Below, one piece after another: positions 1 through 51,563 of a stretch of 64,000 bases of DNA. The stretch is taken from the IMG/VR virus record IMGVR_UViG_2909262264_000005; one strand, written 5' to 3'. Position 1 is the first letter of the stretch. Every line of letters starts with the position of its first letter. The position numbers and the translations under genes were made by a program. The notes below the pieces were generated by a model. It worked only from the letters and a program-made list of their open reading frames with translations, was not told where the DNA came from and did not search any database. The DNA is from a virus. Taxonomy: Duplodnaviria; Heunggongvirae; Uroviricota; Caudoviricetes.

Positions 1-258
1 AAGGCAAAACCCCATCCGGAACTGGCTTATCGTGCAGTTCTGGGGCTGCTGGCACTTCAGAAAAAATACGGCCCGGAACGACTGGAAAAGGCCTGTTACG
101 TTGCCCTGCACTATAACGCCCCTGACAGACGCTTTATCGACAATCTGCTGCGTCACCATCGGGAGAACCTGGAGCTTCCATTATCCCGCCAGGGCGAACA
201 ACATCCGACATATGCTTCAGAGCATGAAAACCTGCGTGGTCCGGGCTACTACCACTGA
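1..258 (+). CDS. istA: IS21-family transposase IstA, C-terminal fragment (5' end outside window)
   Basis: Frame-1 translation KAKPHPELAYRAVLGLLALQKKYGPERLEKACYVALHYNAPDRRFIDNLLRHHRENLELPLSRQGEQHPTYASEHENLRGPGYYH is identical to the C-terminus of the 548-aa ORF at 49796-51442. Confidence 0.85.
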   Translation, partial: KAKPHPELAYRAVLGLLALQKKYGPERLEKACYVALHYNAPDRRFIDNLLRHHRENLELPLSRQGEQHPTYASEHENLRGPGYYH

Positions 259-274
259 CAGAAGGAACAACAGT

Positions 275-1030
275 ATGAGTGATAACCTGTTAAACAAACT
301 GACCCAACTGAAACTCCCGGCGATGGCCGGGAGCCTGATACGGCAGCGGGAAACGCCTCAGACCTACGACGAACTGTCGTTCGAGGAAAGGCTGACGCTG
401 CTGGTTGATGACGAGCTTCTGAGCAGGGAAAACAGCCGTGTGGCACGGTTGAGAAAAAATGCCGGCCTGAAATACCAGGCAACACCGGAAGGGCTGCGCT
501 ATCCGGCCTCAAGAGGTCTGCGGGCTGAACAGATGAGAGAACTGCTGAACGGTCACTACATAACCCACAGGAAAAACCTGCTGATAACCGGTCCGACAGG
601 ATGTGGCAAGAGCTGGATAGCCAATGCGCTGGGCGAACAGGCATGTCGACAGAAACACAGCGTCCGGTACTGTAGAACCGGGCGATTACTGGAACAGCTG
701 GCTCAGGGACGTGTTGATGGCAGCTGGCTGAAATATCTGAAACAGTTGCAAAAAATACAGGTTCTAATCCTGGACGATCTGGGGCTGGAACAGTTAAGTA
801 ACGCCCAGTGTAATGACCTTCTGGAGCTCATAGAGGATCGTTACGGACAAAGCAGCACGATAGTGGTAAGCCAGTTCCCGGTAGATAAATGGCATGGTCT
901 GATGGAAAACCCAACAACAGCAGATGCCATCCTGGACAGACTGGTACATAACTCACACAGAGTGGTCCTTCAGGGAGAGTCCCTGAGGAAAAATCCCCCG
1001 ACAGTGGAAAGCAGCGAAAAAACGAGTTAA
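275..1030 (+). CDS. istB: IS21-family ATP-binding helper protein IstB
   Basis: Starts MSDNLLNKLTQLKLPAMAG 16 nt after the istA stop; Walker A GPTGCGKS and Walker B-like VLILDDLG; the six-frame ORF from 32 is an in-frame upstream extension from a GTG. Confidence 0.9.
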   Translation: MSDNLLNKLTQLKLPAMAGSLIRQRETPQTYDELSFEERLTLLVDDELLSRENSRVARLRKNAGLKYQATPEGLRYPASRGLRAEQMRELLNGHYITHRKNLLITGPTGCGKSWIANALGEQACRQKHSVRYCRTGRLLEQLAQGRVDGSWLKYLKQLQKIQVLILDDLGLEQLSNAQCNDLLELIEDRYGQSSTIVVSQFPVDKWHGLMENPTTADAILDRLVHNSHRVVLQGESLRKNPPTVESSEKTS

Positions 1031-1129
1031 AAAGCGATAGAAAAAGTTAAGTTCCCGGTTGATCGAATGTATGCGAATCGCTGATCGGACTTCGATGCCA
1101 ATCCGTGATCGAATAGAGCGGAATACGCA

Positions 1130-1578
1130 TTTGCCGCATAGCCGTCATTTTTGGGCTGGTATGGCCCCTGATAATGTTCGGCAAACAGAATGCGCTCTGT
1201 TGCCGGGAAATACGCCCGCAGGCTTTCCTTGTTGCATCCGTTCCAGCGTCCGGACGGCTTCGCCCAGATAATGTGATTCAGCACATTAAAGCGTTCACGC
1301 ATCATGATTTCGATATCAGATGCCAGGCGATGACCACAGAACAGGTAAAGACTTCCGGCAGGCTTCAGTACCCGCCAGAATTGCGCCAGACACTGGTCCA
1401 GCCATTTCAGGTAATCATCATCGCCCTTCCACTGGTTATCCCAGCCCTCGGGCTTCACTTTAAAGTATGGCGGGTCTGTGACTATCAGATCGACAGAATT
1501 TTCCGGTAAGGTCTGGATAAATTCCAGGCAATCAGCGTTGATTAACTCACAACTGGATATTTTTACAGTATTGGCCAT
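1130..1578 (-). pseudogene. DNA methyltransferase (DPPY motif), 5' fragment truncated by IS copy 1
   Basis: First ~150 codons ([41 protein letters not shown]...) are near-identical to the intact 350-aa gene at 45639-46691; similarity is lost at the IS boundary (1129/1130), after which the reading frame runs into IS sequence. Confidence 0.8.
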
Positions 1579-1728
1579 AGATCAATAAGCACTTCTCTGA
1601 TAGGCTCATACCGCTTTTGCGCAAAGCAGATGGGCCTGAGGTTTGCTTGTGACCCCAACGCATGAGCAGATGGCTGGCAGGTGCCGCTAACACCCACCAG
1701 CCGCCCATTACCACAAATTAAAAAGCCT

Positions 1729-48924: not shown

Positions 48925-49023
48925 TGCGTATTCCGCTCTATTCGATCACGGATTGGCATCGAAGTCCGATCAGCGATTCGCATACATTCGATCAACCGGG
49001 AACTTAACTTTTTCTATCGCTTT

Positions 49024-49779
49024 TTAACTCGTTTTTTCGCTGCTTTCCACTGTCGGGGGATTTTTCCTCAGGGACTCTCCCTGAAGGACCACTCTGTGTG
49101 AGTTATGTACCAGTCTGTCCAGGATGGCATCTGCTGTTGTTGGGTTTTCCATCAGACCATGCCATTTATCTACCGGGAACTGGCTTACCACTATCGTGCT
49201 GCTTTGTCCGTAACGATCCTCTATGAGCTCCAGAAGGTCATTACACTGGGCGTTACTTAACTGTTCCAGCCCCAGATCGTCCAGGATTAGAACCTGTATT
49301 TTTTGCAACTGTTTCAGATATTTCAGCCAGCTGCCATCAACACGTCCCTGAGCCAGCTGTTCCAGTAATCGCCCGGTTCTACAGTACCGGACGCTGTGTT
49401 TCTGTCGACATGCCTGTTCGCCCAGCGCATTGGCTATCCAGCTCTTGCCACATCCTGTCGGACCGGTTATCAGCAGGTTTTTCCTGTGGGTTATGTAGTG
49501 ACCGTTCAGCAGTTCTCTCATCTGTTCAGCCCGCAGACCTCTTGAGGCCGGATAGCGCAGCCCTTCCGGTGTTGCCTGGTATTTCAGGCCGGCATTTTTT
49601 CTCAACCGTGCCACACGGCTGTTTTCCCTGCTCAGAAGCTCGTCATCAACCAGCAGCGTCAGCCTTTCCTCGAACGACAGTTCGTCGTAGGTCTGAGGCG
49701 TTTCCCGCTGCCGTATCAGGCTCCCGGCCATCGCCGGGAGTTTCAGTTGGGTCAGTTTGTTTAACAGGTTATCACTCAT
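49024..49779 (-). CDS. istB: IS21-family helper ATPase IstB
   Basis: Identical to 275-1030. Confidence 0.9.
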   Translation of the reverse strand: MSDNLLNKLTQLKLPAMAGSLIRQRETPQTYDELSFEERLTLLVDDELLSRENSRVARLRKNAGLKYQATPEGLRYPASRGLRAEQMRELLNGHYITHRKNLLITGPTGCGKSWIANALGEQACRQKHSVRYCRTGRLLEQLAQGRVDGSWLKYLKQLQKIQVLILDDLGLEQLSNAQCNDLLELIEDRYGQSSTIVVSQFPVDKWHGLMENPTTADAILDRLVHNSHRVVLQGESLRKNPPTVESSEKTS

Positions 49780-49795
49780 ACTGTTGTTCCTTCTG

Positions 49796-51361
49796 TCAGT
49801 GGTAGTAGCCCGGACCACGCAGGTTTTCATGCTCTGAAGCATATGTCGGATGTTGTTCGCCCTGGCGGGATAATGGAAGCTCCAGGTTCTCCCGATGGTG
49901 ACGCAGCAGATTGTCGATAAAGCGTCTGTCAGGGGCGTTATAGTGCAGGGCAACGTAACAGGCCTTTTCCAGTCGTTCCGGGCCGTATTTTTTCTGAAGT
50001 GCCAGCAGCCCCAGAACTGCACGATAAGCCAGTTCCGGATGGGGTTTTGCCTTCAGCATGGATTCAACCACCCGGCCTGTGGACGGGCCCGTACGTTTCC
50101 CCTGCTCGATCAGGCGTTCCGGTGTCCATGTCCCGTGCTGCCGGTGGCGCTCTGGCATGTGAAGCGGATTGGTTGTGTGTTTATATTCATGTGTGCTGCG
50201 CGGATGTTGCGCCACACACTGCCCCTTGTGCCAGAGTTGTACCACAGACTGCCCCGCCTTCAGTGACAGACGCTGACCGACCAGTTCGTGTGGAACGGAG
50301 TACCAGTGACGGGCATATTCAACGTGATAGTCAGGGCCAACCTTCACGGCTTTGTATTCCGTGTATTCATAAGGTGCCAGAGGCAGCGGAGAGAGTGCTG
50401 GCGCATCCAGCATGCGGAAGCGTTCTGCACGGGTTTGATTGCCGTACCCCTTCATTGGCCGGTTATTCATGTCCGTCAGTAACTCCCGAAGGCGCGCATT
50501 CAGCGCCCTGAGCGTGTGGAAGGTTTCATTACGGATGCGGGCAAGAAGCCATCGTTCGACGATGAGGACGCCGTTTTCTGCTTTTGGTTTATCTTTAGGT
50601 TTGCGCGGGCGGGCCGGGATAATAACCGTGCCATAGTGCTCAGCCAGCGCCTGATAACTGTCGTTGATGACAGGCTCATAGCGATCGGCTTTTTTGACTG
50701 CACTTTTGAGATTATCGGGGATGAGCAGCTTCGGCACGCCGCCCAGGAAGGTCAGGCAACGGCTGTGGGCATTTAACCATGACATCATGTCCTGACCTTC
50801 GCACGCTTCAACGTAGGTATAGTTGGATGCCCCCATCACGGCCACGAAGATTGCCACGCGGCGTATCTCTCCGGTGTCCGGATTAATAACAGGAACCGTA
50901 GGACCGCAGAAGTCGATAAAGAGCTTTTCGCCGGCACGATGCTCCTGGCGCATGGAGAGGCGTCGCGTTTTTTTCCACTCCCGGTAGCAACGGCAGAAGT
51001 GCGAGTATCCCATCGCTTTGTCACTCGCCTGTGCCTTGTATTCCATCCACAACAGCTGGCGCGTCACGCCCGGTTTTCTCATTTCCGTATCGAAGTACAG
51101 CATGTCAGGCATAACAAGCTCTGACGCAGAGGTGTCTTTGGGCGGGTAAATGAGTTTCTCCAGCGTGTCATGGGATATATCAGCAGGTAATGGCCATGAC
51201 AGAGAAGAGGCTTTGAAGCGTGCAAGAACCTCAAAAACGGTTGAGGCGCTGATGTGTAACGTCAGTCCGATACAACGGTTAGTCAGCTTCTGGTCGAACT
51301 TGAGCTGAAGGATCTTAAAACAGGTTTCCATAGTGCTCCTGGATTTTCTCTTTCTGGACAT
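49796..51361 (-). CDS. istA: IS21-family transposase IstA
   Basis: N-terminal HTH region, DDE-type core (…LFIDFCG…DNLKS…); start at MSRKRK (RBS GGAG) or 30 nt downstream at METCF (RBS AGGAG), uncertain. Confidence 0.85.
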   Translation of the reverse strand: MSRKRKSRSTMETCFKILQLKFDQKLTNRCIGLTLHISASTVFEVLARFKASSLSWPLPADISHDTLEKLIYPPKDTSASELVMPDMLYFDTEMRKPGVTRQLLWMEYKAQASDKAMGYSHFCRCYREWKKTRRLSMRQEHRAGEKLFIDFCGPTVPVINPDTGEIRRVAIFVAVMGASNYTYVEACEGQDMMSWLNAHSRCLTFLGGVPKLLIPDNLKSAVKKADRYEPVINDSYQALAEHYGTVIIPARPRKPKDKPKAENGVLIVERWLLARIRNETFHTLRALNARLRELLTDMNNRPMKGYGNQTRAERFRMLDAPALSPLPLAPYEYTEYKAVKVGPDYHVEYARHWYSVPHELVGQRLSLKAGQSVVQLWHKGQCVAQHPRSTHEYKHTTNPLHMPERHRQHGTWTPERLIEQGKRTGPSTGRVVESMLKAKPHPELAYRAVLGLLALQKKYGPERLEKACYVALHYNAPDRRFIDNLLRHHRENLELPLSRQGEQHPTYASEHENLRGPGYYH

Positions 51362-51563
51362 TGCCGTCTCCACTGGTTTAAACACGGCAATGAAGACTGT
51401 GGTGAAAAGAGTTAATTCCCGGAGTGACTGGCAGGATGCCAATCAATGATCGGAAGCATGCCAAATCGTGATCGATTGTGATGCCAAACTGTGATCGGAG
51501 ATGGATGCCAAATCATGATCGATTCGAATGCCAAACCGTGATCGATTTAGATGCCATTTTGCA

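Follow-up and report, generated by a model that had tools for sequence, protein, structure and literature searches.

When two copies of one insertion sequence (IS) lie in opposite orientation within a stretch of prophage DNA, the question is how they came to be there and whether the DNA between them has been turned over since. We address this question for the virus record IMGVR_UViG_2909262264_000005 (Caudoviricetes); the window, i.e., the whole stretch that was analysed, is 64,000 nucleotides long. A 2639-bp IS21-family element is found in it twice, as copy 1 at the very start of the window, in a lambdoid prophage that we call prophage A, and as copy 2 about 47.8 kb away in a second one, prophage B. 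We consider it likely that the two insertions were independent, copy 2 having entered the antiterminator gene Q of prophage B and copy 1 a methyltransferase gene of prophage A; these would be two sister copies of one IS, transposed into two prophages that occupy the ssrA locus of an Escherichia coli chromosome in tandem. In the assembly, the DNA between the copies shows no fixed inversion; the interval is in its ancestral orientation.

An IS21-family element in two inverted copies

Copy 2 is a complete IS21-family element of 2639 bp on the minus strand (48925-51563), the span that had been given to it in a sequence-only reading of this DNA. The same reading took the two copies for one IS21-family element in opposite orientation, apparently identical as far as visible, and named divergence between them as what would refute it. 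Both claims held: IstA and IstB pass their family models and the copies lie on opposite strands, while in a direct string comparison window 1-1129 is the exact reverse complement of 48925-50053, with 1129 of 1129 bases equal and no differing base. A repeat of this length and identity is far more than chance would produce. Self-BLAST of the window aligns 1-1130 to 48924-50053 on the opposite strand, at 100% identity; that base 1130 also agrees with base 48924 is coincidence in the flanking DNA, and copy 1 ends at 1129. No third copy or fragment of the IS was found by self-BLAST in the 64,000 nt. The part common to both copies is the low-coordinate 1.1 kb of copy 2, i.e., the istB (right) end in the istA-to-istB orientation, and the rest of copy 1 falls left of the window. 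Relative to the late operon, copy 1 runs in the opposite and copy 2 in the same direction. The features of the two copies are as follows.

1-1129, plus strand: IS copy 1, visible right-hand 1129 bp, reverse complement of 48925-50053
1-258, plus strand: 3' end of istA, copy 1
275-1030, plus strand: istB of copy 1, translation identical to IstB of copy 2
1031-1129, plus strand: right terminal repeat region of copy 1, ending in ...GCGGAATACGCA
49024-49779, minus strand: istB of copy 2, 251-aa AAA+ helper ATPase (NF038214, PF01695)
49796-51331, minus strand: istA of copy 2, 511-aa DDE transposase (NF033546, PF00665 rve, PF22483)
51435-51563, minus strand: left terminal repeat region of copy 2, four to five GATGCCAAAnnGTGATCG motifs of about 20 nt

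The ends of the element were mapped by aligning the window element with 100-nt flanks to seven independent insertions of the same IS, the seven loci returned by an exact-sequence look-up of IstB being in unrelated chromosomal-island and plasmid-like contexts. In all seven of these loci homology stops at the same two positions, which gives TGCAAAATGGCA...GCGGAATACGCA as the ends, and target duplications of 5-7 bp accompany six of the seven outside insertions of the 2639-bp element. None of the seven outside copies from this look-up lies in a phage methyltransferase or in Q. The IstA protein scores 288.9 bits against the NCBIfam model NF033546, "IS21 family transposase" (cut-off 160), and also matches the Pfam models PF00665 (rve) and PF22483 (Mu-transposase C-terminal domain); a 511-aa istA gene was called in all related loci. 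The istB gene lies directly downstream, 17 nt from the istA stop to its start codon, and its product scores 257.8 bits against NF038214, "IS21-like element helper ATPase IstB" (cut-off 200), with a PF01695 match at E 9.5e-61. The RefSeq/PGAP labels on close E. coli matches are "IS21 family transposase" and "IS21-like element ISSso4 family helper ATPase IstB".

The termini are of the same kind. They form inverted repeats of the TG...CA type, each with repeated motifs: a repeat search placed the GATGCCAAAnnGTGATCG motifs of copy 2 at 51435-51546, spaced by 45, 24 and 23 nt, and their inverted partners at the opposite end of the IS (48942-48983). Multiple L and R terminal repeats about 23 bp apart are a trait of the IS21 family (PMC10122671), and copy 2 also has a short direct target duplication, of 6 bp. 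Every testable structural feature of an IS21-family element is present. Set beside the enterobacterial IS21-family elements whose IstB is labelled "ISSso4 family" by PGAP, it is alike in istA-istB layout, TG...CA ends, terminal motifs and 5-7 bp duplications, and we see no difference of substance; the assignment holds at the level of the family and not of an IS name.

The two closest outside copies differ from the window element by 1 and 2 bases (99.96% and 99.92% identity); the former is copy L010, and such copies lie on E. coli plasmid-like contigs. The best match among the RefSeq complete genomes of E. coli is 99.0%, and the IS matches up to 34 places per E. coli genome. Judged by its sequence, the element is almost the same as an IS21-family insertion sequence that is widespread in enterobacteria. 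At IS position 1718 copies 1 and 2 have the same base, unlike both closest outside copies, which would fit a recent copy-to-copy origin within the genome.

The two interrupted genes

The sequence-only reading further claimed that each copy disrupts a prophage gene, and both genes are indeed cut, a PF06530 antiterminator Q in prophage B and a PF01555 methyltransferase in prophage A. At copy 2 the whole insertion lies in view.

48784-48918, minus strand: Q antiterminator of prophage B, codons 70-113 and stop
48919-48924: target-site duplication CTCATA, left
51564-51569: target-site duplication CTCATA, right
51564-51770, minus strand: Q antiterminator of prophage B, codons 1-69 (PF06530 positions 1-70 of 118)

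Q of prophage B is broken after codon 69 of 113, and its N-terminal fragment matches PF06530 (Phage_antitermQ) at E 8.6e-28. A prophage B that lacks the IS, but is otherwise 99.98% identical, is present in E. coli MB06171 (NZ_CM129888). The window exceeds MB06171 by exactly 2639 + 6 bp, and the alignment blocks abut, overlapping at the duplicated bases. When 51770-51564 is joined to 48918-48784, a 342-nt open reading frame results that is nucleotide-identical to the MB06171 Q (the reconstruction equals 13564-13905 of locus L003); the MB06171 annotation has it as "antiterminator Q family protein", between DUF968/KilA-N genes and methyltransferase/lysis genes. Both the Phage_antitermQ match and the place between nin-region genes and the lysis cassette identify the gene as Q. 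Copy 2 is a simple insertion, not a recombination scar, because it is flanked by the 6-bp CTCATA duplication and its excision restores a Q identical to that of MB06171.

These same flanks bear on whether the IS pair and the DNA between form a composite transposon, moved as a unit, as the presence of two IS copies around a segment with defence genes might suggest. We rejected this reading, which is so improbable as to be practically negligible: the CTCATA duplication stands on both sides of copy 2 with the Q halves on either side, and the interval occupies its ancestral place next to ssrA, where MB06171 has it too. With a duplication of its own, copy 2 interrupts Q in situ; therefore the IS was inserted into pre-existing prophages.

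In phage lambda, transcription from pR' continues into the genes for lysis and morphogenesis only with the help of Q. With Q split, prophage B should therefore fail to complete the lytic cycle; by analogy with lambda it should lack Q-dependent late transcription and be unable to lyse the cell or make particles. The split gene makes prophage B almost certainly defective. Intact reading frames, near-identical copies in many contexts and the empty site of MB06171 are indirect signs that the element may be active in transposition.

At copy 1 only the inner side lies in the window.

1130-1578, minus strand: N6/N4 DNA methyltransferase of the prophage A late region, 5' fragment (PF01555 positions 1-105 of 221)

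Copy 1 cuts this PF01555 N6_N4 methyltransferase gene after 449 nt (149 codons + 2 nt) of about 349 codons, and leaves a stub that retains the DPPY motif without the C-terminal half. From 1130 on, the window is 98% identical to a prophage in E. coli L3_E36_ETEC and 17 other genomes, and the junction at 1129/1130 sets an exact IS terminus against methyltransferase sequence that is continuous in the L3_E36_ETEC prophage. In that prophage (locus L001) an intact 348-aa homologue annotated "DNA-methyltransferase" lies at 5403-6449, and the match begins inside it at 6001 (window 1130); Q and the porin lie on one side of this gene, while the other side has four tRNA genes followed by the lysis cassette and the terminase. 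Prophage B itself has a full-length paralogue (45639-46691) that matches the entire PF01555 profile. Compared with this paralogue, the prophage A enzyme is truncated, and it has presumably lost its activity.

A simple insertion is the most economical reading of copy 1, and we hold it with good though not full confidence. It implies that the other 1510 bp of the IS would lie left of the window, with the 3' 600 bp of the methyltransferase gene on the far side of copy 1 and an outer junction expected to read approximately ...GCTCGCGCCCC TTTGCC / TGCAAAATGGCATC..., i.e., with a 5-7 bp repeat of TTTGCC(G). The gene in which copy 1 sits is the first of the prophage A late region, downstream of Q, and the insertion would separate Q/pR' from the genes for lysis and morphogenesis by 2.6 kb of foreign DNA. 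The late genes of prophage A, if still present, lie left of copy 1 and outside the window.

A rearrangement could have left the same visible half: recombination, or an IS-mediated deletion or inversion, that involved a third IS copy beyond the window would have deleted or moved the prophage A late region and left unrelated DNA on the far side. We regard this as unlikely, yet worth weighing. The outer flank lies beyond the window, the up to 34 matching places per E. coli genome mean that more recombining copies may exist, and defective, truncated prophages are common; however, nothing in the window demands a rearrangement, the inner junction is a precise IS terminus, and the sole fully visible copy, copy 2, is an untouched simple insertion. 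Very improbable, in our estimate, is a third possibility, that assembly produced the partial copy at position 1 as an artefact, through a contig end or a misjoin within the repeated IS. The window does start inside the IS, and IS copies are frequent sites of breaks and misjoins in assemblies, but the window is a fixed 64,000-base slice whose start is probably arbitrary, and the perfect 1129-bp repeat resolved at both sites suggests long-read or finished sequence. An exact transposon terminus at 1129/1130 is not the junction that a random misjoin would give; on this and on the twice-resolved repeat the artefact was rejected.

Some points weigh against independent simple insertions that disabled both prophages. 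The window includes neither the left part of copy 1 nor the flank beyond it, so a simple insertion there is something that we infer. Q-modified RNA polymerase might read through copy 1, and prophage A may keep some late expression. The loss of prophage function, finally, is deduced from gene disruption.

Database searches placed neither insertion elsewhere. Both IS insertion sites are absent among 5,426 complete RefSeq E. coli genomes, and megablast of window 1-2400 against them gave no record spanning the copy 1 junction. The exact 40-mer of this junction had 0 matches in genome contigs and 0 in metagenome contigs; no other strain with either insertion was found in these complete-genome, genome-contig and metagenome-contig searches. 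Exact-protein look-ups returned no record for the chimeric methyltransferase-IS and Q-IS reading frames, nor for the porin and Q of prophage A.

Thus far one feature of the pair has been left aside: the same IS is found in the control region from Q to the first late gene of both tandem prophages. This double hit may be chance, or it may reflect selection against inducible prophages. A reading that joins the two hits, as not independent (selection for non-inducible lysogens, or IstB-guided targeting of a lambdoid late-control feature), and that lets the 47.8-kb interval flip at measurable frequency, seems to us improbable; if the interval does flip, the population would be mixed, with Q of prophage A linked or unlinked to its late genes. 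IS-inactivated "grounded" or defective lambdoid prophages of E. coli O157 and K-12 likewise have an IS in an essential lytic gene (Q) or in the late operon while being otherwise well preserved (PMC6379469); here, by comparison, the same IS is at the equivalent control region of two adjacent prophages. The phage 434 porin gene, which carries IS5, is another IS-disrupted lambdoid gene.

Orientation of the 47.8-kb interval

Two long identical repeats on opposite strands, 47.8 kb apart, are what an invertible segment needs at its borders. Crossing-over between such copies would swap their inner flanks, i.e., the two CTCATA repeats would be parted and the 3' part of Q would come to stand beside copy 1. 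In the window, the blocks 16269-48924 and 51564-64000 are ordered and oriented relative to each other just as they are in MB06171. There is no fixed inversion because the Q halves and the CTCATA duplication are in place at copy 2 and the DNA is colinear with MB06171; the orientation is ancestral, and therefore copy 1 still has its original inner flank, from 1130 onward. More can thus be judged than the sequence-only reading supposed. That the window shows an already inverted state, after recombination between the copies, has nothing in its favour beyond the presence of inverted repeats, and it is extremely improbable: copy 2 has its own 6-bp duplication, the Q halves are in the right order and orientation, and both blocks are colinear with MB06171. 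On these three grounds we rejected a fixed inversion; an even number of inversions would leave the same structure as is seen. The one assembly shows the ancestral orientation and not both.

The ancestral arrangement does not deprive the pair of its potential. Recombination between inverted IS copies flips the segment between them (PMC5009759), as the sequence-only reading put forward for this pair as a possibility, and E. coli is known to undergo inversions mediated by prophages and by IS elements (PMC8743559). The pair seen here is the same substrate as in those E. coli inversions, with 1129 bp of repeat visible and 2.6 kb if copy 1 is complete, and could in principle undergo RecA-mediated inversion of the 47.8-kb interval. 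It differs from the reported large origin- or terminus-symmetric inversions in that this assembly has no inversion, and in that the interval is only 47.8 kb and all mobile DNA. If inversion occurred, prophage A would have its Q parted from its late genes, the late genes of prophage B would point away from the remaining half of Q, and no function would be restored; the prophages would only be scrambled more.

IS disruption of prophages and IS-mediated inversions are already well documented in E. coli, and the present case is ordinary mobile-element damage. Its value is mainly for strain annotation, i.e., that prophage B is almost certainly defective, that prophage A is damaged and that the orientation is ancestral; the repeat pair could confuse assembly or yield a structural variant.

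The ssrA locus and the contents of the interval

The interval and its parts are listed here.

1130-48924: interval bounded by the inverted IS copies, 47.8 kb
1130-16268: prophage A early region and int
16269-16295: ssrA 3' fragment
16524-20386: EcoRII-type restriction-modification (R-M) and PD-T4-3 islet
20456-48924: prophage B late region

The sequence-only reading had the R-M islet inside the interval, as it is, together with most of prophage A, of which only the early/regulatory part of about 15 kb (1130-16268) is in fact there: the methyltransferase stub, a porin, Q, replication and immunity genes and int.

Just after the integrase gene of prophage A (region 14937-16295) lies the 3' end of ssrA, 27 nt long (CGGGTTCAACTCCCGCCAGCTCCACCA, 16269-16295). 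MB06171 has at the same point a complete ssrA, then smpB, and no prophage A. An ssrA fragment here and an intact ssrA without prophage A in MB06171 therefore show that prophage A shares the tmRNA locus with the R-M islet and prophage B, integrated in tandem with them. ARAGORN detected neither tRNA nor tmRNA genes in the window, which has only the 27-nt ssrA 3' fragment, and no second ssrA fragment follows the prophage B integrase (62281-63456) within the window.

The defence islet sits between the ssrA fragment and the tail-fibre genes of prophage B and is 100% identical to MB06171.

16524-17738, plus strand: EcoRII-type restriction endonuclease
17773-19248, minus strand: Dcm-type C5 methyltransferase
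19613-20386, plus strand: GIY-YIG protein, full-length match to the PADLOC PD-T4-3 model (E 7e-139)

Prophages A and B share four patches of homology in direct orientation, at 72-83% identity, in the methyltransferase region, the replication region and the integrase.

1130-2128 and 46243-47245: A/B homology patch
6693-7573 and 55566-56449: A/B homology patch
8200-8497 and 56726-57023: A/B homology patch
15625-16109 and 62933-63417: A/B homology patch

The patches are direct, and the two prophages therefore lie in the same orientation; they are probably too diverged for efficient RecA recombination.

The porin of prophage A is a full-length OmpC/NmpC-type protein (2378-3475; PF00267, E 3e-154), whose gene is on the opposite strand, with Q (3665-4048) to one side of it and the cut methyltransferase gene to the other, an arrangement that is the same in phage 434 and several lambdoid phages. 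In prophage B two overlapping opposite-strand reading frames (308 and 182 aa, 47310-48771) are found between Q and the methyltransferase gene, a place typical of morons; neither frame matches a Pfam or PADLOC model, and both are hypothetical in the MB06171 annotation. The tail-fibre end of prophage B (16269-23688) is 99.26% identical to MB06171, with 53 mismatches, against 99.98% elsewhere in the prophage, which suggests local tail-fibre variation or recombination.

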